A stretch of 64,000 nucleotides of DNA, from the IMG/VR virus record IMGVR_UViG_3300018080_000107; one strand, 5' to 3'. This DNA comes from a virus. The notes below the pieces were generated by a model that ran no database searches, had not been told where the DNA came from, and worked only from the letters and a program-made list of their open reading frames with translations. Position numbers and translations under genes: made by a program. Shown in pieces: positions 12,605-42,452 of this stretch. The stretch's first letter is position 1. Each line of letters opens with the position of its first letter.

Positions 12605-12622
12605 GTAGCCTTGAAAACAAGG
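12605..12622 (-). promoter_or_regulatory. class I promoter motif CCTTGTWTNNAGGCTAC (representative copy)
   Basis: Minus-strand copies also at 13477, 14559, 15609, 15905, 16700, 17636, 18232, 18755, 19292, 19846, 20728, 21226, 25049, 26389, 26945, 28242, 30003, 30830, 32090, 32414 and 33314; plus-strand copies at 16043, 21277, 33372, 35709, 37559 and 42394. Confidence 0.85.
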
Positions 12623-12659
12623 CATATACAGATTAAAATCAATTAATCTTTTTTGCTTC

Positions 12660-12755
12660 CTAAAAATCGAAGGCTTCAATCATACTGATGGCCACATAAC
12701 CGAAATAGATAGCCTTGATAGTCAAGATGGCGATGACGGCTTTAAACTTACTCAT
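12660..12755 (-). CDS. 31-aa hydrophobic peptide, copy B
   Basis: MSKFKAVIAILTIKAIYFGYVAISMIEAFDF; 23/31 identical to copy A. Confidence 0.7.
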   Translation of the reverse strand: MSKFKAVIAILTIKAIYFGYVAISMIEAFDF

Positions 12756-12800
12756 TTTGTTACCTTTCGTTTTTCGGCTTGTTTGTTACTCGACTATCTA

Positions 12801-12828
12801 AGTATACGATGGTATGCAGGATGCGCAA
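12801..12828 (-). promoter_or_regulatory. host sigma70-type promoter
   Basis: TTGCGC-N16-TATACT followed by leader TAGATAGTCGAGTAACAA shared with the 13939 promoter. Confidence 0.6.
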
Positions 12829-12870
12829 GGTTTATTTTCCCCGATTCTCGGTTTTTCCTAAACCCTTTAT

Positions 12871-13446
12871 TTATACAATCTTATCGGATTTTCGCCGATT
12901 ACATTTTGCACAAAGTAATTGAACGTTTTCGGGATTGTCGTTTCCACCTTTGCTATACGGTAAGATGTGGTCATATTGTAGGCTTTCATTTGTGCCACAT
13001 TTTACACATCGACCATTAGAACGGACAAAAGCTATTTTTTTAGACAATTCCGGGATTTCTCGCCTATCCTCTTGTGTTTTATGATTAAATGAACGATGAT
13101 TAATATTTAGCCATTCTATAGCTTCTTGCAATTCTGTTTTATCGGTTTCAGGTTTTATCGATTGTCTGATTTCCCTTAATACCCTTTCGGATTCCTCTTG
13201 TGTCTCATAAATTAAACCATCTTCATTTTTCGGCCTTTCGGCTTTTTCCTTGTCTTTATCGTATGCAAGGGAAACAAGGATAGATGTCAGTATTCCCCAC
13301 AATAACCAAAACATCAGATGTGATATATCAAAGCATACTGATGCAAACCCAACCCAAAAGATAGATATTAAACCGAACCATAGAAAACGCCATGCAAGCT
13401 TTACGGCTTGCCCTATAGCCTTGATAGTATTAATAGTGTTTTCCAT
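12871..13446 (-). CDS. membrane-anchored HNH endonuclease
   Basis: Two N-terminal TMs; CVKCG...QYDHILPYSKGG...NVQLLCAKCNRRKS. Confidence 0.85.
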   Translation of the reverse strand: MENTINTIKAIGQAVKLAWRFLWFGLISIFWVGFASVCFDISHLMFWLLWGILTSILVSLAYDKDKEKAERPKNEDGLIYETQEESERVLREIRQSIKPETDKTELQEAIEWLNINHRSFNHKTQEDRREIPELSKKIAFVRSNGRCVKCGTNESLQYDHILPYSKGGNDNPENVQLLCAKCNRRKSDKIV

Positions 13447-13537
13447 TTTTTGCCTTTCGTTTTTACCCTTCTATTAATACCCTTCAAAACAAGGCTATAC
13501 AGATGAAAACTTATTAATCTTTCTCGGCTTGCCCATA

Positions 13538-13566
13538 GGGGAAAGGCTTAGCGCCCTTCCCCCTTT
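13538..13566. terminator. putative terminator hairpin
   Basis: GGGGAAAGG/CCCTTCCCC inverted repeat downstream of 13576..13893. Confidence 0.5.
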
Positions 13567-13575
13567 GCCCTTGTT

Positions 13576-13893
13576 TTAGCTTGCAACCTTGCCAATGCTT
13601 GCCCTTGCCCTTTTAAGGCTATCCGAAACGGCTTGTTGTGTTGTATTCAAGGCTTCCGCGATAGCCTTCTGATTCAATCCTTCCCGATAGTACAATTGAA
13701 CGATGGTTTTTTGCTTTTCGGTAAGGGTATCGGAATAGTCCAGAATGATGGCCGTTTCAATCCTTCCCGTCATCAATTTCCTGATGTCTTCATCGTCTAC
13801 CCTTCCCGATTCCATCGACGGGATAAGGCTTTCGACGGCTTCACAAAGGCTTTTGCAATTGTTTCTCTTTTCGCATGTTTCACAGTTAGTCAT
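13576..13893 (-). CDS. sigma70 region-4 HTH protein with N-terminal Cys cluster
   Basis: LTEKQKTIVQLYYREGLNQKAIAEALNTTQQAVSDSLKRA; CETC...C...C. Confidence 0.8.
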   Translation of the reverse strand: MTNCETCEKRNNCKSLCEAVESLIPSMESGRVDDEDIRKLMTGRIETAIILDYSDTLTEKQKTIVQLYYREGLNQKAIAEALNTTQQAVSDSLKRARASIGKVAS

Positions 13894-13938
13894 GATTCGC
13901 CCTTTCGTTTTTGTTTCGGCTTGTTACTCGACTATCTA

Positions 13939-13967
13939 ATACTACGATGCTATGCTCATATCGTCAA
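13939..13967 (-). promoter_or_regulatory. host sigma70-type promoter
   Basis: TTGACG-N17-TAGTAT upstream of the HTH gene. Confidence 0.65.
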
Positions 13968-14001
13968 GGAAGATTAAAGACTTTTAATAATTGCCCTTTC
14001 C

Positions 14002-14517
14002 CTATGCTGGCGCATAGGTATAATCGGGAGAAAAATCGATACAGTAAACGGCTTTGATTTCCCCATCATTGTCAACGTCAAGGGTAATGTTTCCCCCGTG
14101 TCTATCGCCGATGTCGATTCCTACGGCGTCCATCTTTTCCTGGCAGTATCGGGAAAGATTAAAACCCTTAAATCTAACGTCCATACTAGAAATGCCCTTA
14201 TCATAGCAATAATCGGTAAGTGTAGTATTGCCACAATGTGACATCACGATGCCGAACCTTTCCACGTTTTCGCCGGAAACCTTTACGATAACCTTAAAAA
14301 CGCCAATAGGTTTAGGGGAAACGCCCGATGGTTCTGCTTGTTTCAAAAGCTTATATTCGGCCATTGCTTCACAGTATGCAGCGGAAAGGGTTTTCTGTTT
14401 CAATACCTTGACGCCAATAGAATCAGTAAGCTTGAAATACATAGAATAAAGACCACTACCCATCATCGGCTTATGAGTAACAATAAATTCGGCTTTCATG
14501 TTTTCGTAATTAGTCAT
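14002..14517 (-). CDS. minimal protein kinase-like protein, paralog 1
   Basis: GSGLYS loop, GVKV, helix-C Glu, DRHGGN catalytic loop, IDF. Confidence 0.75.
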   Translation of the reverse strand: MTNYENMKAEFIVTHKPMMGSGLYSMYFKLTDSIGVKVLKQKTLSAAYCEAMAEYKLLKQAEPSGVSPKPIGVFKVIVKVSGENVERFGIVMSHCGNTTLTDYCYDKGISSMDVRFKGFNLSRYCQEKMDAVGIDIGDRHGGNITLDVDNDGEIKAVYCIDFSPDYTYAPA

Positions 14518-14858
14518 GATTCAACCTTTCGTTATTGTTTTTGTTTCGCCCTTCATAGGTAGCCTTGAATACAAGGCTATACAGAAAATTAAATCGTTTT
14601 AATATTTCTCTCATATCACGCATCTATATATAATAGTATAGGCTTTTCCCCTATGCAAATATCGTTCCCGACACCATCCGATTGTCCAAATAATAGACAA
14701 AAAAACCTGAAATAATAGCTTTCTCTGTGAAGCCTTCTAAGCCGTTTTAACGGCTTTAAGCCTTTATATGTATATCTACCCTCATTTGTCGCGCATCGAC
14801 GTTATCCGTCTAAACCCTTACTATATATAGACTTATGACGACGTATTTTGAAAACCCG

Positions 14859-14874
14859 TGCAAGAATCGTGCCA
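14859..14874 (-). promoter_or_regulatory. sigma54 (-24/-12) promoter consensus
   Basis: TGGCACGATTCTTGCA, a perfect match. Confidence 0.6.
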
Positions 14875-14885
14875 GACGCCCTTTT

Positions 14886-15013
14886 ATTAAACCTTTTTAA
14901 TATTTCAAGCCGATTTATTAAATTGCTTTCATTTTCAATCTATACTATTGCTATAGACTTTTTTATTAAATTGCCTTCATAATTGTAGACTTGGATTATT
15001 AAGATTCTTTCAT
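14886..15013. repeat. four ATKAA-N6-TTMAT boxes
   Basis: Copies at 14886, 14917, 14965 and 14998. Confidence 0.85.
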
Positions 15014-15028
15014 AATTCGGACACCATC

Positions 15029-15056
15029 AAAAAAAGCCTACCGAATAGATAGGCTT
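15029..15056 (-). terminator. intrinsic terminator
   Basis: AAAGCCTA/TAGGCTTT hairpin, similar to the 11665 terminator. Confidence 0.65.
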
Positions 15057-15100
15057 TGTAGTTAATTAGTTTTCTACTATTACTGATTTTTAATCATTGC

Positions 15101-15116
15101 TGGAACGGTTTTTGCT
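15101..15116 (+). promoter_or_regulatory. sigma54-like promoter
   Basis: TGGAACGGTTTTTGCT (GG-N10-GC). Confidence 0.45.
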
Positions 15117-15148
15117 ACCCCATAGGCTTTCCCCTTTATGAAAATTGT

Positions 15149-15427
15149 TTAACTTACTAATTCAAGCCTTTCAGATTCTTCATTGTAATCGATTCCCAAT
15201 ATGCGCATAATATCGCATGATACATCTAGGTCACTACCCAAAACATCGATGCCGTATTTATCGCCATCTAACGGCCAAGCCGTAACATCGATGGTTACAC
15301 AAGGAAAAGGATAGATAGCCTTCATTTTGTAGGCTTCAAGGCGATACTTTCGCCCTTCATACTCGAAAACCTTGCCATTAACAGATAGAAAAACTTCATT
15401 GTAATCGGAAAGAAGATTAAAAGACAT
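15149..15427 (-). CDS. hypothetical protein
   Basis: Start and stop both overlap 16-bp boxes. Confidence 0.7.
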   Translation of the reverse strand: MSFNLLSDYNEVFLSVNGKVFEYEGRKYRLEAYKMKAIYPFPCVTIDVTAWPLDGDKYGIDVLGSDLDVSCDIMRILGIDYNEESERLELVS

Positions 15428-15442
15428 TAATTTTACCTTTCG

Positions 15443-15577
15443 TTACTGCCAAGTTTTGATGGCGTTTCTGTTGTTTTCTTTTCGTCCGATATCGGATACT
15501 TTAGCAAAGCCGATTCGGATACCTTCCGCCACTATAGCAAAGGTAAACAGGATACCGATAGTTGCAAATATTGTCAT
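15443..15577 (-). CDS. 44-aa membrane peptide
   Basis: MTIFATIGILFTFAIVAEG...KTWQ; GAAAGG RBS; class I promoter. Confidence 0.6.
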   Translation of the reverse strand: MTIFATIGILFTFAIVAEGIRIGFAKVSDIGRKENNRNAIKTWQ

Positions 15578-15645
15578 GATTCAGCCTTTCAGTTATCGCC
15601 CTCTATAGATAGCCTTCAATACAAGGCGATACAGATGAAAAAGCT

Positions 15646-15873
15646 TTAATATTTCATGATTCCAGTAAAAAGCCTTTGTCCAATAAGATGACAATCTTCG
15701 GGCAATGGCGTAAACGTCCAATTAGCGCCAGGAAGCCGAAAAGCTTGCCCATCGATGTATGCTGTACAATGCTTTGTAGTAAGCTTTATTTGTCCTTCCC
15801 TGCCCATTGCGCCATCATTCTTGGCCGTTACTACCCTTCCGATTATCGCATCGATTCTTACGGTTTTAAGCAT
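15646..15873 (-). CDS. hypothetical protein
   Basis: Own class I promoter and RBS. Confidence 0.65.
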   Translation of the reverse strand: MLKTVRIDAIIGRVVTAKNDGAMGREGQIKLTTKHCTAYIDGQAFRLPGANWTFTPLPEDCHLIGQRLFTGIMKY

Positions 15874-16196
15874 TATTTAGCCTTTCAGTTATCGCCCTTC
15901 ATTGTAAGCCTTCAATACAAGGCGATACAGATGAAAATGGTTTAATCTTTCTATGTTTTGCCCTTCTAATATAGATAGTATAGAAGCCTATTCAAATGGT
16001 ATGCCAGATTTTCAATTATGAAAGAAATTTAATCTGCATAGGCTTTGTTTTCAAGGTTACTGATGACGGGAAAAAATAAAGGGTAAAAAAAGGTAGTTTG
16101 AAAAAGAAACATGTAAAATTTCCCTATGGGTAAAAAATCCCTATATGGAAAAATAGGTCGGTAAGAAATACCTGTTTGAAATCCATACATGGGAAA

Positions 16197-16385
16197 ATGA
16201 AGATTCTTTAATGATTAAGATTCTTTCATTATGAATAGATTTTAATGTGAAAGGATTTTCATGAAAAAAAGTTAATGAAGAAATTTTCATGAAAGAAATT
16301 TCATGAAGGGATTTTAATCCTTAGAGCAGAAAAAAACCGGCGTCGGAGTCATTTTCCTTAGAGCCGGTTAATATTGGCGTCGGAG
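16197..16385. repeat. tandem array of 8 ATKAA-N6-TTMAT boxes plus two AGAGC-N11-GGCGTCGGAG motifs
   Basis: Boxes at 16197, 16214, 16231, 16247 (GTGAA variant), 16261, 16275, 16289 and 16303; bipartite motifs at 16323 and 16360. Confidence 0.85.
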
Positions 16386-16466
16386 TCATTTTTTGATTCC
16401 GGCGTTTTTTTGTTTAGCAAGTAGGGGAACGGCTTTTCAGCCGCCCCCCTCAAACCTGGAGAGTTT

Positions 16467-16655
16467 TCAAATTTTCACAATATAAAGGTCGTTTCCGTTC
16501 TTTTGAATCCTAAAGCCATTCTGGCTTGCGAATGCCCGATGTGCTGGCGACACGTCAAAGAACCTTGAAAGCTTCTCGAAACGCTTGCTGCCTATCTTGT
16601 CCATTGCTTCCGTCAATGCGTCCATTACATTACTCGTCAGTTCTGAAGTCAACAT
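16467..16655 (-). CDS. hypothetical protein
   Basis: Start reassigned to MLTSE after GAAAGG. Confidence 0.6.
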   Translation of the reverse strand: MLTSELTSNVMDALTEAMDKIGSKRFEKLSRFFDVSPAHRAFASQNGFRIQKNGNDLYIVKI

Positions 16656-16744
16656 TGCTTTGCCTTTCTGTTTTAGGTTTTTACTTTCGTCTCTCATAAG
16701 TAGCCTTCTATACAAGGTCTGAATTATTAATCTTCTTTAATCTA

Positions 16745-17173
16745 TCAACACTTTTCCAAAAGTGAATCTTCTTTCATCTTTCGGATTTTCGCCTTATACT
16801 TTCGTGTTGCCTTGCGAACCTTTTGCCGCCCCTTATCGGTCTTATGATAGTCCCTAACGGCTTTTCGTTGCCTATCCGCACCACAAGCCTTACAATACTT
16901 CTTTCGTCCGTCACGCGCCCACATAGGCTCCCCACATTGCAAACAATCCTTGATGACGCCCCCTCTTTTCCTTTGCACCATCAAAACCTCTACAATGCCC
17001 CGTAAAGCCTTTAGACGCTCAATAGGTCTTAGGGTACACGCACGCCACGCATCAAGCTCATGCGTTCTTGTATAGGCGCTACAGGCAAGCTTAGGTCGTG
17101 CTTCGATATCGATACCAAAAAGTAGCCCATTTTTTTGTGCCGTTACTCCACCGTTCAATTTAACAGTCTTCAT
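16745..17173 (-). CDS. zinc-finger basic protein
   Basis: CLQCG...YCKAC and basic tail. Confidence 0.65.
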   Translation of the reverse strand: MKTVKLNGGVTAQKNGLLFGIDIEARPKLACSAYTRTHELDAWRACTLRPIERLKALRGIVEVLMVQRKRGGVIKDCLQCGEPMWARDGRKKYCKACGADRQRKAVRDYHKTDKGRQKVRKATRKYKAKIRKMKEDSLLEKC

Positions 17174-17234
17174 CTTTATAAACCTCTTTTTTGTTGTCAG
17201 GAAAATTATTAACCGCCATTAATGTGAACGCTTG

Positions 17235-17408
17235 TTAATCGTCGGCAAGCTTAACCAGTATAGCCGTCCAAATAATCGCCCAAGGAATTGACACCGCAAA
17301 CATTGCAAGCCGTTGCCAAAAGGTGTCTGGCTCAAGCAAAAGCCAAGGTGCCATGATTCCACCGATAAGCAAACACAAAAAGATAATCACTCTAAGCAAA
17401 TCAGACAT
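17235..17408 (-). CDS. 57-aa two-TM membrane protein, paralog of 25445..25735
   Basis: MSDLLRVIIF...PWLLLEPDTFWQRLA...; bracketed by boxes. Confidence 0.65.
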   Translation of the reverse strand: MSDLLRVIIFLCLLIGGIMAPWLLLEPDTFWQRLAMFAVSIPWAIIWTAILVKLADD

Positions 17409-17422
17409 TTTATTAATCCTTA

Positions 17423-17599
17423 TTAATTTTTCTTTTCAACCTTGTACCAAGCCAACTGAATGCCGCCCGTCTTAGTACAATAGCGGACTTCATCAGCACT
17501 CTTAAGCTTATTGGTTATAGTTCTACTGTCAACAATCTTGATGGCTTCCGCAAGCACTTCCTCAGCGAATGCTTTCACTTTCAGTTCTTTTTTAGTCAT
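17423..17599 (-). CDS. 58-aa hypothetical protein
   Basis: MTKKELKVKAFAEE...; class I promoter upstream. Confidence 0.6.
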   Translation of the reverse strand: MTKKELKVKAFAEEVLAEAIKIVDSRTITNKLKSADEVRYCTKTGGIQLAWYKVEKKN

Positions 17600-17662
17600 G
17601 ATGTTTCCTTTGTTAAAGTTTTTTGCTCTCTATAAGTAACCTCAAATACAAGGCCATATAGA

Positions 17663-18202
17663 TTAATCTTCTCTCACACAACAGTATGATGGTGAAAAGT
17701 CGATACACCAAACCTTTGATATTGCCCCAAAAGCGTCAGTTTCTACGATGATGTTTCCGGCGTGTCTATCCCTAAGATTCAATCCGCAAGCCTTCATTTT
17801 GTCGTAAATATAATCGCAAAGCTCAGTTTCAGCAAACTCGATATCATCAATGCTGTAATCATCTTCATCCCAATAACCTGAATCAAATTCTTCATTTTCC
17901 CTTTTCCACTGATAAAGCGACATCCCCGGACAATGCGTCATCAAGATGCCGATACGCACTATCGGCGTGCCATCAAGATGTGCCCCGTCTTTAACCTTGA
18001 CAATGCCAATGCCCTTTGGAGTGATTCCGCTAGATTCAGCCTGCTTAATATAACTGTACTCTTCAACGGCTTCATCAAAAGCCTCATCAAGTTCTTCATT
18101 CTTCAGAACCTTGATTCCGATAGTTTCAGACACCATATAATAGGTGCTATAAAGACCACTACCAACCGATGTTTTGTGAGTTACATTAAGAGTTACTTCC
18201 AT
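17663..18202 (-). CDS. minimal protein kinase-like protein, paralog 2
   Basis: GSGLYS, GIKV, EEY, DRHAGN, WCIDFSP; aligns end to end with 14002..14517. Confidence 0.75.
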   Translation of the reverse strand: MEVTLNVTHKTSVGSGLYSTYYMVSETIGIKVLKNEELDEAFDEAVEEYSYIKQAESSGITPKGIGIVKVKDGAHLDGTPIVRIGILMTHCPGMSLYQWKRENEEFDSGYWDEDDYSIDDIEFAETELCDYIYDKMKACGLNLRDRHAGNIIVETDAFGAISKVWCIDFSPSYCCVRED

Positions 18203-18343
18203 TCTTTCCTCCATTAATATCACCCTCATCAGTAGCCTTTAATACAAGGTCATCTATATGAAAATTCTTTAATCTTGGGTCCAAAAAAAAGGCGCACCAA
18301 CAAGGCACGCCACAAAACGAAAGGTCATAACGATGAATTCTGT

Positions 18344-18724
18344 TTAATCTTCCTCTACTTCAATCTCCATAAGGTTAGTAGTATCTACACCGAAAGCTTC
18401 AAGATGTTCTTTAAGGTCTGCAAGCTCATCGGCAAGTATCGTGCCGTTTATATAGTCTTCATCACTATCGCACTCGATGCCCCACAATCCGCCAGAACGT
18501 AAGGTTTCTATCCGCCTATCGCCCCGTTCATTAGTGGGATAAGATACGGTAGCCTCTACCCACATACCAAGCATCCACACGTCGCCATTATGAAATTGCT
18601 TTAATCTTTCTTCGTTGCTCGCATTGTGCTCATCCGTGAAAGTCTCGTCATACTCCAGATAAGACAAGTCGGGAAATTCGTCAACAACCTTCACAAACTT
18701 CAGTTTATCAATCGTCGGTTTCAT
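18344..18724 (-). CDS. hypothetical acidic protein
   Basis: Own class I promoter; stop codon in box. Confidence 0.7.
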   Translation of the reverse strand: MKPTIDKLKFVKVVDEFPDLSYLEYDETFTDEHNASNEERLKQFHNGDVWMLGMWVEATVSYPTNERGDRRIETLRSGGLWGIECDSDEDYINGTILADELADLKEHLEAFGVDTTNLMEIEVEED

Positions 18725-18791
18725 TGCTTCGCCTTTCTTTATTAGCCTCTATAGTTAGCCTCTAATACAAGGTCAGAAGTATTAAAATCCC

Positions 18792-19262
18792 TTAATCTAC
18801 GCACTGTCCGATGAAAACGTCACAAGCATCCCCTTCCCCGCAAGTAATCCAACATCCAATACTTTCAGCTTCTTTATCTAATGCTTCCCGAAATATCTCA
18901 TCAAGCTCAGCTTCCCATTCTTCCACATTACTACACGCCCACGGCATGTAAAATTTACCCGATGGATACAAGGAAAATACCGTGCCCAAGAAAACCATTT
19001 TAGACTTATTTCCGTCATAGTCTTCTATTACTTCTGATTCATCCAAAGCCTCTACGATTTTTTCCTTATACAGTATCCCATTATTAATAAGCTCTAATAC
19101 CTCTACTCTTTTTTGGTACTCATCTGTTTCTTGCACATCATAAAGCTTATCACCGATTGCCTTTAGATTCTGTACAATATCCACCGTCCGCCCATAGCGC
19201 ACGGCATAAAGTCCCGTGCTTACCACAATACTGTTTCTGTTAAGTTCTTCACTTGTAATCAT
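18792..19262 (-). CDS. hypothetical acidic protein
   Basis: Own class I promoter; stop codon in box. Confidence 0.7.
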   Translation of the reverse strand: MITSEELNRNSIVVSTGLYAVRYGRTVDIVQNLKAIGDKLYDVQETDEYQKRVEVLELINNGILYKEKIVEALDESEVIEDYDGNKSKMVFLGTVFSLYPSGKFYMPWACSNVEEWEAELDEIFREALDKEAESIGCWITCGEGDACDVFIGQCVD

Positions 19263-19328
19263 GTTTCACCTTTCAGTTATCGCCCTCATCAGTAACCTTC
19301 AAAACAAGGTGATATACATTAAAATTCT

Positions 19329-19814
19329 TTAAGGAATCGGGACAACATCCCCGCCGCAATTGTGCCTATACTTGCCGCCACGACGATAAGCCTTAACCAT
19401 ATTGGTATGTTTACGCTTTGTAATCGGCATTACAGTTTCGCACTTCATACAAACAGCCCTATAATCCCTTGCATTGTGCTTACAAGCCATACTATGGCAC
19501 CTTTCGGCATTGCCGCCTATCCGCCTATGCATAGCCTTCCATCGCCTGTTGTGACCGTTTCCAGGACCAACAAGAAGATGTGCTATTTCGTGCAGAACCG
19601 TGTTTCTGAAATTGCTTTCATTTTCCGCCCTTCTGAAAATCTCATTGCTCAGTTGAACCATAAACAGTTTATGCTTTGCTTTACCGGCAGTAGTCCGAAG
19701 TCTCGTATTGACACTAAAAACGATACGCCCAAGCTCCCCTTGATAGATGGGAAACCGCATCATAAGTTCCGTTCTAATTTCCTTTGCCCTTGTAATCATT
19801 TCTCTTGCGTTCAT
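19329..19814 (-). CDS. SprT-like zinc metalloprotease
   Basis: RLRTTAG, VLHEIAHL, GHNRRWK, C-terminal CxxC. Confidence 0.85.
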   Translation of the reverse strand: MNAREMITRAKEIRTELMMRFPIYQGELGRIVFSVNTRLRTTAGKAKHKLFMVQLSNEIFRRAENESNFRNTVLHEIAHLLVGPGNGHNRRWKAMHRRIGGNAERCHSMACKHNARDYRAVCMKCETVMPITKRKHTNMVKAYRRGGKYRHNCGGDVVPIP

Positions 19815-19879
19815 AGTTTGCCCTTTCAGTTATTGCTCTCTATAGGACACCTTGAATACAAGGTCATACATATTAAAAC

Positions 19880-20104
19880 TTATTCATAATCAATCTCAGC
19901 ACCAAAGACGGAAGCCGGTATATTATCGGGATTCTGACGTTTCATCCATGATGGCGGATTGTCAAGCTTCACCTTAACACCGAGATAACCATCTTCCTCA
20001 AAATAACTTACAACCTTTCCCGTGCCAAGTCCGTTTAGTAGAACCTTAACAATTGAACCGATAGCCGGTACGCCACTTTTGCCAGACCATTTAATATCTT
20101 TCAT
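19880..20104 (-). CDS. hypothetical protein
   Basis: Bracketed by boxes. Confidence 0.65.
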   Translation of the reverse strand: MKDIKWSGKSGVPAIGSIVKVLLNGLGTGKVVSYFEEDGYLGVKVKLDNPPSWMKRQNPDNIPASVFGAEIDYE

Positions 20105-20117
20105 GATAAACCTTTCA

Positions 20118-20279
20118 TTAAATAGGATTGAACGTAGGATTAACTTGCGTCAATGGCGCTATCGTCCATTCTGAATCAATATTCATTTCAGCCCACATTG
20201 ATGCAACCTCCATACAATCCCAAGGTCCATAAAAAGTTGCACCGTCAACCATATTCCCAACAATCAAAACGTAAACCAT
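20118..20279 (-). CDS. 53-aa hypothetical protein
   Basis: MVYVLIVGNMVDGATFYGPW...; GGAG RBS inside box. Confidence 0.6.
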   Translation of the reverse strand: MVYVLIVGNMVDGATFYGPWDCMEVASMWAEMNIDSEWTIAPLTQVNPTFNPI

Positions 20280-20290
20280 ATTAATCTCCA

Positions 20291-20695
20291 TTAACCTATG
20301 ACGTTATCAATGCTTCCATTCTCACAATGCCACGTTTCACAATCATCAATCTCCATTCCGATTTTTGTGAAAGTTCTTTCAGTAATCAGCCCATCCCTTT
20401 CGCAAGCCTTCAAGGCTTCCCGCCAAAGCTCGATAATTTCCCAATGGGTACGCCCTTCCCCGCCACACTCGGCAGCCTCATGAATGCGATTACACATTTC
20501 ACGCTTTTCAGGACAAGCCGAGTAGCCCAAGCCACTTATGAAAGATTCTTCATAAGCCTGAAAGTATTCTGAATTATAGAAGTCCTCAAGATTATGAATC
20601 CCTTCATCATTCTGCTTGCGTACAAGCTTCAGCCTTTCGGCTTTCTCGTCAATCGTCACGTCAACAGGACAAAATTCAATCGTTACAGTTTTCAT
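20291..20695 (-). CDS. hypothetical protein
   Basis: Start reassigned to MKTVT; own class I promoter. Confidence 0.65.
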   Translation of the reverse strand: MKTVTIEFCPVDVTIDEKAERLKLVRKQNDEGIHNLEDFYNSEYFQAYEESFISGLGYSACPEKREMCNRIHEAAECGGEGRTHWEIIELWREALKACERDGLITERTFTKIGMEIDDCETWHCENGSIDNVIG

Positions 20696-20756
20696 TGTTT
20701 CACCTTTCGTTATTGCCGCCCTCATCTATAGCCTGCAATACAAGGCGACATACAGA

Positions 20757-21191
20757 TTAATCTTTCTTAATTTTGTATATGATGTAAGCGCCCTTCTTTT
20801 CCGCCACAACCTCAAAAGGCAGTACACGATTTACTTGATAAGTTCCGGTTTTCGTCCATCCTTCTTTCTTGATGTCTCGCCTAACTGTAATGTATGCAGT
20901 TCCACCAACAACAAGGTAATCATGAATGCCCTTTAATACACCGTGAACCTCATCGTCAGTTATGACATTCAATACATAATTACAAACAACTGTATCAAAT
21001 TGCCCTTCCGGCTTCTCAGGACGATGGAACGGGTCAAAGCCTGCAATACCAAGCTCATCGGCGTCAAAGCCTTTCCCACAACCATAGTCCAATACACGCC
21101 CCGTCAGAAGTCCTCTATCCCTTAGAAGTCGCATAGGGACACTAAGGGTTTTTCTCGTGATTGCTGTTTTGTGTGCTTTGTCATTCTTCAT
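20757..21191 (-). CDS. class I SAM-dependent methyltransferase
   Basis: VLDYGCGKGFD...FDP...FDTVVCNYVLNVI. Confidence 0.8.
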   Translation of the reverse strand: MKNDKAHKTAITRKTLSVPMRLLRDRGLLTGRVLDYGCGKGFDADELGIAGFDPFHRPEKPEGQFDTVVCNYVLNVITDDEVHGVLKGIHDYLVVGGTAYITVRRDIKKEGWTKTGTYQVNRVLPFEVVAEKKGAYIIYKIKKD

Positions 21192-21362
21192 TAGTTTGCC
21201 TTTCATTTGTTTTCCGCCCTCATTGGTAGCCTGAAATACAAGGTATTGTGAAAAAAGATTAACTGTATATCCTAAGTCTTGTATTTGAGGCTACTTATGA
21301 ACGGGGAGTTATCCCCACCTATTCTATCTTATATAACAAGCGAAAATAGGAGGATTTGCCAG

Positions 21363-21530
21363 ACGAAAATGAGTTAATGATTACGAAAGTTTAATGATTA
21401 ATGTTTTTTAATGAATGAATTTTAATGAAGATTCTTTAATGTGAAAATCGCTTAATGTATGATGTGATTTTCATAGAGCCAGAAGGTTTCGGCGTCGAAG
21501 GCTAAGAGCGGCCAATATCCGGCGTCGAAG
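21363..21530. repeat. tandem array of about 7 ATKAA-N6-TTMAT-like boxes plus two AGAGC-N11-GGCGTCGAAG motifs
   Basis: Exact boxes at 21397, 21411 and 21425; near matches at 21363, 21380, 21441 and 21459; bipartite motifs at 21475 and 21505. Confidence 0.8.
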
Positions 21531-21577
21531 CCTTTTTTTGTTGACCCGACATTAAGAAATTTTAATCTAATGTGCAT

Positions 21578-21650: not shown

Positions 21651-21658
21651 CTTGAGTG

Positions 21659-23518: not shown

Positions 23519-23781
23519 CAGTTCTCCAACACGTCAACCTCATTAGCCTTAACAATATGAATACGCCTTGTCTTATCAAGCAAAACAGTATAAGCCTCTG
23601 TATGTGGATGTACATACGTCACCGTACCAACCTTACCACGAATAAGCGGACTAATATAGTTCAGTCGCTTGATGCAAACCCTGTCACCCTTTTCAAGATA
23701 AACATGTCCTTTAATCTTCTTCATATCAAACCTCCTATAATAAGCCCCAGAAACAAGGCTCATTAAGATTTTTTCACGCAC
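23518..23781 (-). CDS. hypothetical SH3/KOW-like protein
   Basis: KGDRV...GKVGTV; true start may be downstream. Confidence 0.5.
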   Translation of the reverse strand: MREKILMSLVSGAYYRRFDMKKIKGHVYLEKGDRVCIKRLNYISPLIRGKVGTVTYVHPHTEAYTVLLDKTRRIHIVKANEVDVLEN

Positions 23782-25028: not shown

Positions 25029-25088
25029 TTTAAAGCTCCCTTCTATAGTAAGCCTTAAAAACAAGGTGTCAGGAAAATTAATATGCGC

Positions 25089-26365: not shown

Positions 26366-26406
26366 TCAATACACCTCCTTCTCTATAGTAGACGCTAAAA
26401 ACAAGG

Positions 26407-26909: not shown

Positions 26910-26978
26910 TATTTTTCTCCTTTGTTAAGGGCCTCTCTCTATAGGAAGCCTCGAATACAAGGTGGTCAAGATTAAAAA

Positions 26979-28209: not shown

Positions 28210-28358
28210 TTCGTTTCTCCTTGTTATTAACGCCCTCATCAGTAGCCTCAAAAACAAGGCGCTCAACATTAATCTTCTTTAATAAAGGGGGCGATGCCTG
28301 GCACCGCCCTCGCCTCCACCACCGGGAAGCCTCCCGGAAAAACAATGCGAACGATTAA

Positions 28359-29985: not shown

Positions 29986-30023
29986 TATTACCTCCCTCAG
30001 TAATAGCCCTCAATACAAGGTCT

Positions 30024-30811: not shown

Positions 30812-30872
30812 GACAACCTCCTTCTATTTGATACCCTCAATACAAGGGTCAAGAAGATTAAAATCCGCTCAT

Positions 30873-31951: not shown

Positions 31952-32084
31952 GGGACGGTGTTAATTCACTTCGTTCGCGTCGGGATATGTTTCCGCCATG
32001 TGTTTCAAACCGACGCCTGCGACTTACTGCGCATCCGGTTAGTTCCAGTCGATTCGCACCGCTTTGTACGGCAGTGCCCGTCCC
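31952..32084 (-). ncRNA. candidate four-way-junction ncRNA or structured leader
   Basis: Begins GGG 5 nt after class I promoter; stems GGGACGG/CCGTCCC, GCACTGC/GCGGTGC, CGACT/AGTCG, GCGTCGG/CCGACGC. Confidence 0.55.
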
Positions 32085-32120
32085 TATAGTAAGCCTTAGA
32101 TACAAGGTGCCGAAGATGAA

Positions 32121-32429
32121 TTATTCTTCATCTGGCTCTCCATAACTGCTCTCAAATTCTTCATTGCATCCATCACATATTTTAGGTGCCCCCTCGTCAT
32201 ATTGAAATTGATGCAACTTATGAGGATAACCATCAATCCTGCGCTCTGCCTCTATCTTCAAAGCACAATCGCCACAGTAGATATTCCCATCCACTTCATC
32301 ATAATAAAGAATTGTATAGCCTCCCGGCCAAGCATAAGTCGGGAAAAGCCTATCCTCTATCTTAATCACCGCTTGTCGCATAAATTCAACTCTTGTCATA
32401 TCGCCTCCTATCATATACCTTAAAAACAA
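32121..32429 (-). CDS. hypothetical phage protein
   Basis: YAWPGGY...CGDC...CDGC; true start likely MTRVE. Confidence 0.65.
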   Translation of the reverse strand: MFLRYMIGGDMTRVEFMRQAVIKIEDRLFPTYAWPGGYTILYYDEVDGNIYCGDCALKIEAERRIDGYPHKLHQFQYDEGAPKICDGCNEEFESSYGEPDEE

Positions 32430-32438
32430 GGTGGGAGA

Positions 32439-33313: not shown

Positions 33314-33389
33314 TACGCCTCGAATACAAGGCCATACACAAGATTAATCTTTTTTAATCTATATGTCCACAACTTGTACAGAGGGCTAC
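33314..33389. promoter_or_regulatory. divergent class I promoters sharing one 16-bp box at the strand switch
   Basis: Minus copy 33314-33331, box 33343-33358, plus copy 33372-33389. Confidence 0.75.
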
Positions 33390-34197: not shown

Positions 34198-34224
34198 GTA
34201 ATTCTTCATCAAAAATACCGTCTA
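34198..34224 (+). promoter_or_regulatory. class II promoter GTAAT-N16-CGTCTA
   Basis: One of 7 copies. Confidence 0.7.
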
Positions 34225-34830: not shown

Positions 34831-34849
34831 TAATAAGTTAAGTATATCT

Positions 34850-34882: not shown

Positions 34883-34895
34883 CCAACAGAGTTGA

Positions 34896-35234: not shown

Positions 35235-35242
35235 TAACAATA

Positions 35243-35704: not shown

Positions 35705-35746
35705 ATCACCTTGTTTTTAAGGCTACTTGTGAGGAGGTAATAATAC

Positions 35747-36899: not shown

Positions 36900-36914
36900 T
36901 AAAAGGTATTTACA

Positions 36915-37334: not shown

Positions 37335-37339
37335 TATTA

Positions 37340-37543
37340 ATGGATATTGAACATAGTAACTTATCAGGTATATCTGAATGTGATGAGTGTGGGAAGAAGG
37401 CTTATGACCTTTGGGAAATAGCACCAAGGTTTACAGCAGAAAATTGTACATTCCCAAATATGTGTCCACCTAATTCTATTTGGCTTTGTGACGACTGTAT
37501 TAAAGAGTTGACACTGGAGCTTATAGATTTGGACATTAACTAA
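37340..37543 (+). CDS. hypothetical zinc-binding protein
   Basis: CDEC...LCDDC. Confidence 0.55.
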   Translation: MDIEHSNLSGISECDECGKKAYDLWEIAPRFTAENCTFPNMCPPNSIWLCDDCIKELTLELIDLDIN

Positions 37544-37626
37544 TTTTAATATTCCTGACCTTGTTTTCGAGGCTACTATTGAAGGCGTTACTTTTCATTC
37601 TTATTTCTTTTTAAAAGGAGGCTAAC

Positions 37627-38601: not shown

Positions 38602-38615
38602 GTAGAATTGTCTTA

Positions 38616-38636
38616 AGGGGGGCACAGTGCCCCCCT
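38616..38636 (+). terminator. terminator hairpin
   Basis: GGGGGCAC/GTGCCCCC. Confidence 0.6.
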
Positions 38637-38696
38637 ATCGCTTATATTGCGAAAAGACGTATTAAATATTAACAGAGCAGCATCAAAGGAGAGCTT

Positions 38697-39371: not shown

Positions 39372-39388
39372 AAAGTGCGAAAAAGTTC

Positions 39389-39415
39389 GTAATAATCCCA
39401 CAAATTTAACGTCTA
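39389..39415 (+). promoter_or_regulatory. class II promoter GTAAT-N16-CGTCTA
   Basis: One of 7 copies. Confidence 0.7.
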
Positions 39416-39469
39416 ATATAGTGGACGTTCGTACTTTTATTATCACAGTTATTTTAGGAGGAAGTAGTA

Positions 39470-39832
39470 ATGGCAAAGCGTAAGTGTAAGAAGCACCCTA
39501 AGTACCAGGGTCTACGTCGGCCACGTGCTAAGGATGAGAATGGTGAGCTATGCGCTGATTGTGTAGCCATCTTTGAAGAGGCTCGTGCGGCAGGTCTGAA
39601 GGAGACACGTGCGCCTCGTCAACGTAAGGAGAAGCCTGAAGAGGTTGAGACTCCTGTTGTGGCAGAGGCGGCTGTAGAGGAGGTTGTAGAGCCCGAAGTA
39701 GAGGCTCCAGAACCAGAGGTTGAGGAAGAGGAAGAGTCTTGTGATGAGTGTCCTGATGACGATGACCTGGATGGTCTTCTTGAGGATACTGATTGGGACT
39801 TCGACGACGACGATGAGGATGAGGAGATTTAA
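39470..39832 (+). CDS. protein with basic N-terminus and highly acidic C-terminus
   Basis: CKKHPKY...CADC then long E/D tract. Confidence 0.7.
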   Translation: MAKRKCKKHPKYQGLRRPRAKDENGELCADCVAIFEEARAAGLKETRAPRQRKEKPEEVETPVVAEAAVEEVVEPEVEAPEPEVEEEEESCDECPDDDDLDGLLEDTDWDFDDDDEDEEI

Positions 39833-40051
39833 TTGATACAGCATATTACTCTTGATTATTGGGCAGATTTTATCTTTGTATTTGGTTCGCTATTTGCCAT
39901 TGTGGCATCGATAGCATTCTTTGTCGTTCTATGTAAGATTGCTAGCAATACCAAGGTGCTCAACCGAACACTGCACGATATTCGTATTGCTCAGTCTGCA
40001 TTTGGCAAAAGATTAAAGAAAGTAGAGGATAATCCGTGGCTAAAAAAGTAA
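39833..40051 (+). CDS. small membrane protein
   Basis: One TM. Confidence 0.5.
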   Translation: MIQHITLDYWADFIFVFGSLFAIVASIAFFVVLCKIASNTKVLNRTLHDIRIAQSAFGKRLKKVEDNPWLKK

Positions 40052-40236
40052 GTGGCAAACTGCATAACGCTGTTCAATGTCCAAATTGCGAAGAGGTATT
40101 GGTATCTCTACATCGCCATGATTTCAGACAATGTTCTTGTGGCGACTTGGCAATAGATGGCGGCAGTGATTATTGTAGGATTGTAGCCAAACCCAATTTG
40201 CAATTCAAGAGTTTAAAGGTTCGACTTTCACAGTAG
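40036..40236 (+). CDS. small Cys-rich phage protein
   Basis: NAVQCPNC...S.HRHDF..CSCG...IDGG. Confidence 0.7.
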   Translation: MAKKVSGKLHNAVQCPNCEEVLVSLHRHDFRQCSCGDLAIDGGSDYCRIVAKPNLQFKSLKVRLSQ

Positions 40237-40302
40237 TTCTGGTCGTCATATATGCCACCTTCATCTCGTGGTGGGGGTGGCATTTGTTTTATCAGGAGAA
40301 TT

Positions 40303-40522
40303 TATGGCCAAAGATAGGCTCGTCATAGTAATTTCAATTTATATGTTGAATAACCCAGAGGCTTACAAGAAGACAGACCCTTGGCGTGCCTACATACTAA
40401 GAATACGTGAAAGACTTGATAAGAAAATTTACTACCTGAAGAAGCATAAGACTGCTTTAGGAGTTTCAAACAGTTCAGTGGAGGTATGGCAACGTGGAAA
40501 ATCCACAGATGTTTCAAAGTGA
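40303..40522 (+). CDS. hypothetical protein
   Basis: Start reassigned to MAKDR after AGGAG. Confidence 0.5.
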
Positions 40523-40874
40523 AGTTATAATTCGTTTACCAAGACACACAATAATGTCGTTGCAAAACATTCTTCATATGTTGATTCGACAAGGGAAAGA
40601 TAAGTTTGACTATGATTCTGGTCTTGTATTTGGCCCTTTGGTGGATGATCCGAATATCCTAAAGAAATTACAGGACGAAACATATGTAGACGCGATGTCA
40701 TTATTCGCTTCAATTACTGCACATGCCGATGTGTTTATGACAAGCGATTTCACACTTGAATTTGGAGATGATCAACAAGGATGTGGCGGCAATTGTCAGT
40801 GTGGCTTTAGTGATAATTTTGCACCAGATGACCCATTTGGAGGAATTGACTTTGAGGGGTTTGATCTAAACTAA
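40494..40874 (+). CDS. hypothetical protein
   Basis: ORF in operon. Confidence 0.6.
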   Translation: MENPQMFQSEVIIRLPRHTIMSLQNILHMLIRQGKDKFDYDSGLVFGPLVDDPNILKKLQDETYVDAMSLFASITAHADVFMTSDFTLEFGDDQQGCGGNCQCGFSDNFAPDDPFGGIDFEGFDLN

Positions 40875-41009
40875 TGGCAAAAGAATACATCGAGACTAAG
40901 TATTTTCTTGATACCGGCAATGAGGTAATCGAAATAAGTAGAAGAATGTTTACCTTGTACAAGGCGTCAGGAAAAGTAATAAAAACTAATGGAACCAGAA
41001 TTATTGTAA

Positions 41010-41579
41010 GTGAGGAACAGAATGAGCAGGAAGGTAAAGCTTGAAGCTTGCGGCTATGTAGACTGTTTGATTTGTAGTGATAGACTGCGGTACACAAGTG
41101 AGGTTTCGTTAGTTGAAAAGTGTTCGTGTGGCAACTTGGAAATTCACAACGTGTTTAATGTATGTGACAATGCTGGTGTCTCTACTCTTTATGATAAAGG
41201 TGAAGAACATCAGTATTCAGTCAAACCAGACTACTATCATTATGTTGGCAAAAGAACAATTGTAGTTGATCTGGATAAAACCCTTGCCGAAAACGACTTT
41301 CCTTTTATTGGCAAAGAAAATGTAGACCTAATAAAACATCTTCATGCTCAGTTGTTGAAAAGCTACAAGGTGATTCTTTTTACTTGTCGTTTGAATCCAG
41401 ACATCGTAGGTGGGCAAGAAGAAGCAGATTGGCATAAGGGCAAAATTCGTGAATGGCTTGATTTGCACGGGTTACAGGAAGTAACCATTTGGGAACACAA
41501 AAAACCATACGGTGTTGTGTATTGGGATGATAAGTCTGTGAATCCAAGGGGCAATCAAGTTGTGGGGTTTCTCGAATAA
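41010..41579 (+). CDS. HAD-superfamily phosphatase-like protein with N-terminal Cys domain
   Basis: IVVDLDKTL, LFTCR, KP, YWDDK. Confidence 0.75.
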   Translation: MRNRMSRKVKLEACGYVDCLICSDRLRYTSEVSLVEKCSCGNLEIHNVFNVCDNAGVSTLYDKGEEHQYSVKPDYYHYVGKRTIVVDLDKTLAENDFPFIGKENVDLIKHLHAQLLKSYKVILFTCRLNPDIVGGQEEADWHKGKIREWLDLHGLQEVTIWEHKKPYGVVYWDDKSVNPRGNQVVGFLE

Positions 41580-42379
41580 TGCAATTTTCTAATCCTGTTC
41601 TGTATGTAGAACCAAAAATTTCAAATGAAGCAAGACATAGCGCCATTCAAAGAATTATCAATGTTTTACGGGATGATTTAGATCCAAGCAATGGTGTTAT
41701 TGAAAGCTTGCAACGTATCAATGCATTGGTTAAAGAGCGTGCAAAATATGCTAATACTGCCAATACTCATATAGGACTTCCAAGACTTGGTTTCGGCAAA
41801 TATAACTTTGAGTGGTTTTTGAACAATACAGAAATGTTTAGCAATGCAACAGCGGCGTTTCAACAAAAAGGACTTGAAGTAGATACTGTTATGCTTTATG
41901 AGGTTGCATATGGTTCACATTGTATTTTTCTTCATAGATTAATCAAAGATGAATATAAGGATGGTGTTGGTCCGCTATTTAAGCTTTATGGTGAAAAGCT
42001 ATTTTGTTCCCCCAATGTTGTGACTCCATCATGTGTCTATGGAGGATTCAATTCTAGAATGCGCGTTCTGGAGCTTATGGTAGCCCTACAGACGCTTGCT
42101 AAGAACAATACGATATTGGACCCATACAAACTTGAAGCTATGAAGGATTGCTTTATAGCGGTTTACATGAGTGGTGAGCCTGAACTAAGGCGCAGGATAG
42201 CAGATGGTTATATTCCAATCAACCGTAGTGATGATGAAATTTTCACACCCGACCAATCCATGAATGCTCGTATTGAATACGAAATGTGTATTTATCATGC
42301 ATACAAGATTATGTTGTGGCTGGATTTTTGGGCAAATGAAGGCTTTGACATTTCTGTAAGAACTGAAATCGAAAATTAA
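41579..42379 (+). CDS. hypothetical protein
   Basis: 266-aa coupled ORF. Confidence 0.7.
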   Translation: MQFSNPVLYVEPKISNEARHSAIQRIINVLRDDLDPSNGVIESLQRINALVKERAKYANTANTHIGLPRLGFGKYNFEWFLNNTEMFSNATAAFQQKGLEVDTVMLYEVAYGSHCIFLHRLIKDEYKDGVGPLFKLYGEKLFCSPNVVTPSCVYGGFNSRMRVLELMVALQTLAKNNTILDPYKLEAMKDCFIAVYMSGEPELRRRIADGYIPINRSDDEIFTPDQSMNARIEYEMCIYHAYKIMLWLDFWANEGFDISVRTEIEN

Positions 42380-42452
42380 AATTCTTTCATCGACCTTGTT
42401 TATAAGGCAAGCTATAGAGGACAATGTATTTAGATTTGTATTTGGAGGTTAT

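Follow-up and report, generated by a model that had tools for sequence, protein, structure and literature searches.

A predicted phage-specific promoter class of rigid architecture in an uncultured phage of about 166 kb

We have analysed a 64,000-nt stretch of viral DNA (IMG/VR record IMGVR_UViG_3300018080_000107; hereafter the window) and report that it contains about 29 copies of a short, rigidly built element, termed class I, which almost certainly constitutes a phage-specific promoter class. That class I is a promoter at all is highly probable. With respect to how it is read, we favour, and give an even chance to, a composite sigma-type promoter which would be used by the host core RNA polymerase (RNAP) in combination with a phage-specified sigma-type factor.

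Results

Class I sequence, copy number and orientation

The initial annotation had described an 18-bp motif in about 28 copies but printed a 17-letter consensus, a sequence which detects only one weak site in the window at up to two mismatches. At the coordinates cited for them, the copies contain three, not two, variable bases in the middle of the motif. The motif searched here, CCTTGTWTNNNAGGCTAC (18 bp), is therefore the printed consensus with one missing N restored. It is found at 28 sites at up to three mismatches compared with 2.63 expected, a number attained in none of 100 shuffles, indicating that the repeated motif is real although its printed form was one N short. Two of the 28 sites are spurious, 13639 (+), which is intragenic, and 14563 (+), a mirror reading of the palindromic copy at 14559, leaving 26 credible copies. 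A looser scan with CCTTGTWTW detected 29 sites against ∼5 expected and added degenerate copies at 30847 and 32431 and a hybrid at 26406, each located before a gene, bringing the total to about 29 (26 credible copies plus 3 variants).

The position profile of the 26 copies is a single gapless 28-bp block, R-CCTTGTWTT-nr-AGGCTA-cytAT-RRRGG, longer than the 18 bp described initially and with an information content of ∼30 bits. T21 is invariant (26/26), while positions 22–26 consist of purines only, with no T, and end in GG. The bases at positions 22 and 23 are always either AG or GA, a perfect anticorrelation equivalent to a 1-nt indel, AT(A)-GARGG. Spacing within the block is equally rigid, the gap between the upstream element and the hexamer being 2 nt in 22 of 24 copies and the distance to the start junction 5 nt in 21 of 24. 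Start codons follow ∼12–46 nt past the purine run, which doubles as the Shine-Dalgarno (SD) sequence in copies with a short leader.

Below 33.33 kb the minus strand carries every copy but two, the antisense ones at 16043 (+) and 21277 (+); above 33.37 kb all lie on the plus strand. This strand pattern, with its flip at 33.35 kb, agrees with gene orientation and with the GC-skew switch, and the earlier observation that the motif flips with the genes at 33.3 kb is thus borne out by every copy bar the two antisense ones.

Evidence for promoter function

At the strand switch, two class I copies stand back to back around one copy of a palindromic box (33314–33389), an arrangement in which no upstream transcription is available either to supply or to act on. 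The two antisense copies each head a unit of ∼270–370 nt which is free of open reading frames (ORFs) and ends at a same-strand T-run terminator. Terminators precede only a minority of class I copies. Sigma-70-like sites occur in the region at chance frequency (51 observed, 49.4 expected) and T is found in 0 of 26 copies at the −7 position of TATRRR, in agreement with the initial description of a promoter-like class that matches no host sigma consensus.

Class I is also conserved. In metagenomic relatives (contigs L009/L012, L013 and L027) coding DNA is ∼69% identical and GC content 30–36%, yet CCTTGTWTWCAAGGYTAC-TTATAGAGGG is kept exactly. Retention of the core and TTATAGAGGG unchanged against this degree of coding divergence points to selection on the class I signal. 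The cassette occupies a different gene order in these relatives, and true relatives were detected by the metagenome pattern scan only on contigs of ≤3 kb. Elsewhere the pattern is essentially absent: 185,579 bacterial species genomes yielded just two single chance hits, in a scan which small degenerate regulons would escape, and an exact-motif scan of IMG/VR gave six single chance hits, none of them a relative. Nor did a similar motif turn up in the other genomes compared. The sequence matches no promoter consensus in the literature searched. Three other arrangements compared by eye, MerR-type spacer operators, LuxR-type class II activation at −42.5 and the Bacteroidetes −33/−7 pattern, were rejected on spacing or key bases.

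A different stretch, GGGCAAAT-CCTTGTTTTTTAGGCTAA-TAATGGGGG, follows a T-rich run on three unrelated contigs (L008:11066, L017:931 on the minus strand and L019:2958) and probably represents, in some other lineage, a conserved promoter or the 5′ region of an RNA.

The palindromic box and the leader

The ATTAA-N6-TTAAT box is located exactly 8 bp upstream of the core in 12 of 26 copies (at up to two mismatches) and is 1–5 bp out of this position in ∼8 more, with a few copies lacking it. All ten box-core pairs given as examples in the initial annotation are correct, but the exact spacing does not extend to most copies as had been proposed. The box is independently abundant, with 77 sites at up to one mismatch against 8.9 expected, and is dense at 10–22 kb, where tandem arrays are included. 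In the relatives L009/L012, L013 and L027 the box is kept but lies 10–12 bp from the core. Of the 26 copies, 5 carry the leader ascribed to the early-block copies, GGGCGATAACTGAAAGG, within three edits, and ∼4 others have a looser version of it. Combined, these results only partly sustain the view of box, core and leader as a fixed module: the core block is rigid and often paired with a box, but the box is flexibly placed and separately conserved, and the leader occurs in five copies. The ATTAA-N6-TTAAT box is best read as an operator in its own right, to which a dimeric regulator would bind. The right half of the box was considered as a −35 element and ruled out, as its register varies by up to 5 bp. 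The box cluster spans positions 9996–21566 of the window, and boxes also abut the −35 element of several class II promoters, described below.

The class I copies and associated features are:

12605–12622, minus strand: class I core, 0 mismatches; box at a 9-bp gap
13477–13494, minus strand: class I core before the HNH gene 12871–13446; box at 8 bp
14559–14576, minus strand: class I core, fully palindromic; the sole stable hairpin among the window copies folded
15609–15626, minus strand: class I core; box at 8 bp; canonical leader
15905–15922, minus strand: class I core; box at 8 bp; canonical leader
16043–16060, plus strand: antisense class I core, heads an ORF-free unit
16376–16412, plus strand: GC stem with T7 run closing the antisense unit from 16043
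16700–16717, minus strand: class I core; perfect box at 8 bp
17636–17653, minus strand: class I core
18232–18249, minus strand: class I core; box at 8 bp; intrinsic terminator just upstream (18291–18311)
18755–18772, minus strand: class I core; perfect box at 8 bp
19292–19309, minus strand: class I core; box at 8 bp; canonical leader
19846–19863, minus strand: class I core before a SprT-like gene; box at 8 bp
20728–20745, minus strand: class I core; box off by 2 bp
21226–21243, minus strand: class I core before a methyltransferase gene; no box
21277–21294, plus strand: antisense class I core, heads the second ORF-free unit
21520–21540, plus strand: GC-rich segment with T7 run closing the antisense unit from 21277
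23741–23758, minus strand: class I core; short leader, purine run serving as SD
25049–25066, minus strand: class I core; short leader
26381–26406, minus strand: hybrid, CCTTGTTTT, 3 nt, CGTCTA, CTAT and purine run
26945–26962, minus strand: class I core; box at 8 bp
28242–28259, minus strand: class I core; perfect box at 8 bp that overlaps the tail of a terminator
30003–30020, minus strand: class I core; no box; short leader
30820–30847, minus strand: degenerate class I copy; hexamer slid by 1 nt, total length unchanged
31952–32085, minus strand: structured RNA; closing stem from about +2 of the predicted transcript
32090–32107, minus strand: class I core heading the structured ORF-free RNA
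32404–32431, minus strand: degenerate class I copy (AGGTAT hexamer) before the gene 32121–32414
33314–33331, minus strand: class I core, head of the leftward arm
33341–33360, unstranded: box common to the two back-to-back divergent class I promoters
33372–33389, plus strand: class I core, head of the rightward arm
35709–35726, plus strand: class I core, 0 mismatches; no box; short leader
37559–37576, plus strand: class I core before a DUF932 gene; perfect box at 8 bp
42394–42411, plus strand: class I core before an AAA ATPase gene; outermost copy

An atlas look-up assigned the gene that comes first behind the divergent promoters to an uncharacterised, phage-only family. Stop-codon recoding was considered to explain the sparse long ORFs at 20–32 kb and rejected, this stretch being packed with small genes.

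Predicted ORF-free transcripts and 5′ hairpins

The antisense units share a layout consisting of the class I promoter, a tandem box array, paired GGCGTCG(G/A)AG repeats and a GC stem with a T7 run. As twin units (16043–16412 and 21277–21540) they resemble replication origins that are activated by transcription (T7 ori, T4 oriF/oriG) or a decoy RNA/DNA locus that would titrate a regulator.

The copy at 32090 had been placed at the 5′ end of a structured RNA. It is followed by ACTATA-GGGACGG, and the closing stem GGGACGG/CCGTCCC of the ORF-free RNA begins at position 23, both in agreement with this placement. The predicted fold (minimum free energy −45.9, z −1.7) is only modestly better than those of shuffled sequences. 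Scans for tRNAs and against Rfam gave no match in the window or in the structured RNA at 32 kb. Hairpins with a G-rich and a C-rich arm also start other predicted transcripts, at 5380–5414 (−) for the class II promoter at 5439 (GAGGGGAG...CTCCCC) and at 21297–21316 (+) for the antisense copy at 21277 (GGGGAG...CCCC). The position of these hairpins suggests that they may act as 5′-end stabilisers.

Core symmetry

The core had been described as self-complementary, which is true of the copies at 14559 and 19846 but does not hold across the class. Dyad positions 0–13, 1–12 and 2–11 are complementary in 23–25 of 26 copies and 3–10 in 16, with G-T pairs in 8 more, and position 10 is a purine in 24 of 26. 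The symmetry does not continue to either side of these positions: Watson-Crick pairing is seen in just 7 of 26 copies for pair 4–9 and in 11 of 26 for pair −1/14. When six window copies were folded as single-stranded DNA, only 14559 formed a stable structure (−7.8 kcal/mol), the other five ranging from −1.3 to −3.1 kcal/mol with z values of −0.35 to −2.8. N4 virion-RNAP promoters need a stable hairpin of 5–7 bp centred at −11, in which variable stem bases still pair (PMC4496689). With one of six copies stable and pair 4–9 maintained in 7 of 26, class I does not conform to this description and the N4-type hairpin promoter raised initially is not sustained.

Class II promoters and hybrids with class I

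A second predicted promoter class, class II, consists of GTAAT-N15/16-CGTCTA, 7 nt ending in T, and a purine run. Eight copies occur in the window against 0.3 expected and, when AGTCTA variants are included, 12 copies are present in 107.6 kb of assembled sequence. Judged from its motif, the class has the classic geometry of promoters for extracytoplasmic function (ECF) sigma factors. Class II sits further out than class I on both arms and is interleaved with class I on the plus arm. The window copies are:

5414–5439, minus strand: class II ECF-type promoter, GTAAT-N15-CGTCTA
9861–9887, minus strand: class II promoter
11608–11634, minus strand: class II-like promoter with AGTCTA hexamer; box abuts the −35 element
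34198–34224, plus strand: class II promoter, interleaved with class I
39389–39415, plus strand: class II promoter, interleaved with class I
44681–44706, plus strand: class II promoter
55237–55263, plus strand: class II promoter
58665–58690, plus strand: class II promoter

Anchored on CTA, class I and class II have the box centre 32.5 and 34 nt upstream, respectively, and have G-N-CTA, yTAT(A) and the purine run in common. They differ in the sequence between box and hexamer and in the distance from CTA to the purine run, 5 nt in class I and 7 nt in class II. The AGTCTA hexamer at 11634 is intermediate between AGGCTA and CGTCTA.

Two hybrids connect the classes directly. At window position −1050, a perfect box and GTAAA precede a 16-nt spacer containing CCTTGTTTTGAA and then CGTCTA; at 26406, CCTTGTTTT-TAG-CGTCTA-CTAT is followed by a purine run which doubles as SD. 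Both carry CGTCTA in the place of AGGCTA with a 1-nt slide, indicating that the hexamer is interchangeable. As only ∼5 CCTTGTWTW sites exist outside class I in 215 kb of both strands, we estimate the chance of this element landing in register inside a class II spacer at ∼1e-3.

Sigma-70-like and late-type sites

Two conserved sigma-70-like promoters carry an identical start region, TAGATAGTCGAGTAACAA:

12783–12828, minus strand: second sigma-70-like promoter of the same type, TTGCGC-N16-TATACT
13921–13967, minus strand: sigma-70-like promoter, TTGACG-N17-TAGTAT, with conserved start region, before the gene for a protein with sigma region 4 only

As the region-4 gene has one of just two such promoters, its location suggests that the region-4 protein may be made first. 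The promoter at 12783–12828 drives a small ORF (MSKFKAV...), a paralogue of which lies behind the class I copy at 12605. The sequence CGTATAATA, which contains a perfect TATAAT, is found directly upstream of the RNR, sigma and terminase operon (L035:11024–11145, window about −14530 to −14651). In the sigma-70-like pair and in the late sites, CG stands right before the TAnnnT-like hexamer, while the class II hexamer follows CGTC. The elements of the transcription map are thus the sigma-70-like pair, class I, class II and late-type CGTATAAT sites.

The phage genome and the search for an RNAP

Megablast of the window against 50,697 phage records gave no match, indicating no close relative among deposited phages, and no relative was returned when IMG/VR was scanned with the AAA protein or the region-4 protein as seed. 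The genome is ∼166 kb and circularly permuted, the gene order closing a circle. Gene tables were read on a 165,953-bp ENA contig over record positions 12.9–138.7 kb (∼126 of ∼166 kb; record coordinate = window + 47,042), the range to which the following genome-wide statements apply. No T7-type RNAP (PF00940), multisubunit RNAP fragment or N4-like giant protein is present in these tables. Window ORFs extend to 448 aa at most, and window proteins, including 79 small and medium ones screened jointly, gave no match to RNAP or sigma region 2. The suggestion that a T7-like or N4-like polymerase reads the motif, for which a search of the remaining genome had been proposed, found no RNAP family in its favour within these ∼126 kb.

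The virion module encodes a 1566-aa protein (L039:17877–22025) with ∼11–12 repeated stretches that matches phrog_4636 tail spike (5e-127) and phrog_6002 virion structural and has no Pfam hit or PDB sequence match. By its repeats and PHROG matches this is a tail-spike-like structural protein. Past the window lies a replication module (L033/L038, record 109–139 kb) encoding PhoH, RecA, DnaB, a Toprim primase, dNMP kinase, a PD-(D/E)XK nuclease, a DnaE-type Pol III alpha subunit (1131 aa) and SSB, beyond which large multi-domain glycosyltransferases and a sugar-nucleotide operon are found.

Two sigma-like proteins

Two sigma-like proteins are encoded. The first is:

13576–13893, minus strand: stand-alone sigma-70 region 4 protein, 105 aa, candidate cascade transcription factor (PF04545, Sigma70_r4, E 8e-10)

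This protein carries an N-terminal Cys4 motif, CxxC-x5-C-x3-C, and a word-based homologue search found only the protein itself. The second, of 217 aa, is encoded on the minus strand just upstream of the terminase gene (L035:14265–14918, window about −18421 to −17771). Alone, it matches Sigma70_r2 weakly (E 0.009). An exhaustive search expanded its family to 78 representatives (50% clustering); of the 60 members aligned, 40 match Sigma70_r2 (best 7e-10) and none matches region 4. The family profile matches region 2 of the solved ECF sigmas CnrH, SigW, SigH and SigE (PDB), and a conserved Cys4 cluster follows region 2. An AlphaFold 2 model (pLDDT 89) aligns over its full length with sigma factors, including sigma-2 of RpoS (Z 9.6, root-mean-square deviation 3.1, 93 residues) and T4 gp55 (Z 9.1); AlgU aligned through to the end of region 4. 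No homologue was detected by tblastn in the 50,697 phage records. Combined, the family profile and the predicted structure identify the 217-aa protein as a putative new Cys4-containing, ECF-like sigma family. The gene order RNR, sigma, ERCC4, TerL, portal is conserved in a 45%-identical relative, L036, which covers the structural side only and carries no information on class I.

The 217-aa and 105-aa proteins match adjoining segments of phrog_1740, profile positions 81–129 and 126–213, respectively, and the 105-aa protein may represent a sigma domain that has been split off or can detach. Predicted as a complex, the two scored 0.13, which weighs neither for nor against binding.

Discussion

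A proposed composite sigma-type promoter

On the reading to which we give an even chance, class I would drive the early (host-takeover) block on both arms around 33.35 kb. An upstream element, R-CCTTGTWTT, would be recognised at about −24 to −16, approximately one helical turn closer to the start than a −35 element, and would be followed after 2 bases by a −10-type hexamer, AGGCTA, a G-N-CTA variant of the class II CGTCTA. A short discriminator, yTAT(A), would then lead to initiation inside the purine run GARGG, with the box serving as an operator centred near −40. Candidate readers of CCTTGTWTT would be the Cys4/linker module or the C-terminal domain of the 217-aa sigma, or the 105-aa region-4 protein. 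The start site, and hence all numbering, the assignment of proteins to elements and the timing are inferred. The initial annotation had listed an activator-remodelled host polymerase among its alternatives, a proposal which pointed in the right direction but missed the composite AGGCTA/CGTCTA core.

A more specific form of this proposal is a 'super-extended −10' architecture within the sigma-70 family. The Cys4 or C-terminal domain of an undescribed ECF-like sigma, or a stand-alone region 4, would read a 9–10-bp element 2 nt before G-N-CTA, and the same sigma-2 would be reused with a GTAAT −35 element at class II, producing a combinatorial or split sigma with two temporal classes. In this detailed form we consider the proposal tentative and rather doubtful.

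Several observations weigh against a composite sigma-type promoter. The rigidity and unbroken conservation of class I are also typical of a single-subunit RNAP promoter, with its TATA-like −4 to −1 region and purine start. AGGCTA does not contain the CGT of an ECF −10 and lies 2 nt nearer the purine run than CGTCTA does, and the hybrids number only two. To our knowledge, no sigma reads an element of such length at −24 to −16. On the left arm, ∼51 kb out, the 217-aa sigma gene adjoins the terminase gene and is preceded by promoters of class II and of the CGTATAATA type; from this position it looks middle or late, whereas class I drives the apparent earliest genes, and the protein may be a late sigma rather than the class I reader. 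Finally, ∼40 kb (record 1–12.9 and 138.7–166 kb) lie outside the gene tables.

Other ways of reading class I

Sigma appropriation is an unlikely alternative, in which the host primary-sigma holoenzyme would read rAGGCT as a weak −10 while CCTTGTWTT would be recognised by a phage protein made early, such as the 105-aa region-4 protein, analogous to T4 AsiA/MotA. The two bases flipped out by sigma region 2 are those at −11 and −7, and a start at position 22 places A11 (23/26) and T15 (23/26) at exactly these positions. TWTTn also resembles the Gram-positive TRTGn −16 region at three of four positions, and the region-4 gene, behind its conserved sigma-70-like promoter, could be expressed first, which would solve the bootstrapping problem. 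Conversely, GGC inside the −10 is unusual for primary sigmas, and in this register the element falls at −22 to −14 and not at −30/−35, the site expected for MotA or for a region 4 docked on the flap. Pfam and PHROG screens contained no AsiA or MotA homologues, and the CGTCTA of the hybrids lacks A-11/T-7 in that register.

Recognition of a contiguous block at about −23 to +5 by a phage-encoded or virion-delivered RNAP, of the T7 or a novel type, is less probable again. The gapless, rigidly spaced, ∼30-bit block and the near-absence of the pattern from bacteria suit such an enzyme, as do the AT-rich −17 to −13 region, yTAT(A) at −4 to −1 and the G/A-rich start, all reminiscent of T7 and SP6. 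This reading is opposed by the gene tables, which over ∼126 of ∼166 kb contain neither PF00940 nor another RNAP family and in which the sole large unannotated ORF of the virion module is the tail-spike-like protein. The phage encodes sigma-like factors instead, and the hybrids exchange what would be the specificity region for an ECF −10.

We attach only a slim chance to the view that class I is not primarily a promoter but a dyad operator, AGCCTTG-N4-CAAGGCT, an intercistronic RNA element, or a PeSL-type mobile cassette which shuffles small early genes. Pairs 0–13, 1–12 and 2–11 of the partial dyad and the purine at position 10 would be in keeping with it, and many copies lie 3–27 nt past the upstream gene with no terminator between and are hence also transcribed through. 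The identical spacers and leaders of several copies suggest copy-and-paste, and gene order differs in the relatives. However, the symmetry stops at pairs 4–9 and −1/14, and the asymmetric half of the block (CTA, yTAT and purine run), at a fixed distance from 5′ stems and SDs, suits an initiation site. Upstream of the back-to-back pair at the strand switch there is no transcription to act on, and the antisense copies bound discrete units with terminators. A role as a mobile cassette is compatible with a promoter role.

A host alternative sigma with a small regulon, exploited by the phage, would require no injected or pre-made phage factor for bootstrapping and would fit the ECF-like G-N-CTA hexamer, but is very improbable, as the geometries of sigma-54, sigma-28 and Bacillus sigma-B, -H, -W, -X and -M compared by eye do not fit, the pattern is essentially absent from the bacterial genomes scanned, and phages seldom rely on a stress sigma for their main early class.

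Implications

Phage-specific promoters read by host RNAP with a phage sigma are a well-known general idea; a geometry like that proposed for class I would be uncommon in the sigma-70 family. Were the composite reading correct, a minimal sigma would have been re-aimed by swapping its upstream module while the −10 reader was kept, generating two promoter classes on one scaffold. It would provide a compact, strong and orthogonal promoter-factor pair for synthetic biology, a testable detached sigma region 4 and a new Cys4 sigma family with at least 78 diverged metagenome representatives. Even on a conservative view, the analysis makes it possible to read a nearly complete map of transcription in an uncultured phage lineage (∼166 kb) with no close isolated relative.

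Comparison with known promoter systems

The closest parallels are phages which supply a divergent sigma for the host core RNAP. Promoters mapped for the sigma of phage 7-11, gp47, have the form GTAAtg-(16)-aCTA with starts 6–9 bp downstream, and those of phiEco32 gp36 a single element, tAATGTAtA (PMC8948821). Class II has essentially the same architecture as the 7-11 promoters, with a −10 ending in CTA, and class I shares the CTA hexamer frame. Class I differs in having no −35 element at N16, in its 9–10-bp element 2 nt from AGGCTA, and in its ∼29 copies at early rather than late genes. The 217-aa sigma, in turn, comes from another family, with a Cys4 cluster and no region 4 detectable from sequence. 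Measured against ECF promoters, in which a −35 element of the form (G/T)(G/T)AAC/T lies 15–17 bp before a CGT-containing −10, class II corresponds and class I, with AGGCTA and no GTAAT, does not. ECF promoters also have a −10 core resembling G-T-C ∼10 nt ahead of the start; the GGC of class I aligns with the GTC of class II, yet lies 2 nt nearer the purine run, where the start is predicted. An encoded sigma with region 2 is represented by the 217-aa protein, on the basis of the family matches to Sigma70_r2 and the structural alignment with RpoS. With respect to sigma-70/sigma-A promoters, class I contains no −35/−10 pair in any register, and A-11/T-7 appear only in the weak rAGGCT register.

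T4 middle promoters (AsiA/MotA) also replace the −35 with an upstream element at an odd distance, depend on an early phage factor and form part of an early-middle-late cascade. Class I differs in lacking a TAnnnT −10, in the position of its element, near −20 compared with −30 in T4, and in the absence of AsiA/MotA homologues from the screens.

The T7 group (T7, T3, SP6 and K11) is similar to class I in its compact, contiguous and rigid promoters of ∼23 bp in fixed register with the start, AT-rich upstream, TATA-like before the start and purine-rich at the start, and class I likewise presents a contiguous, rigidly spaced block, of 28 bp. Its block extends 5–6 bp further upstream and, in place of a single non-interchangeable unit at −12 to −5, its specificity region can be swapped for an ECF −10, as in the two hybrids; no T7-type RNAP gene accompanies it in the ∼126 kb screened. 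N4 early promoters resemble class I in containing an inverted repeat. The N4 hairpin is centred at −11, whereas the class I repeat lies near −15.5, consists mostly of 3–4 pairs and does not covary at its variable positions, and the giant vRNAP gene of N4 has no counterpart in the ∼126 kb screened.

The PeSL cassettes of T4-type phages combine ordinary sigma-70 early promoters with a stem-loop terminator (PMC2839356, PMC4122927). Both they and class I are repeated regulatory cassettes beside many small, poorly conserved early ORFs, with near-identical copies which suggest recombination-mediated shuffling; class I differs in not being of the sigma-70 type and in that few of its copies follow a terminator.

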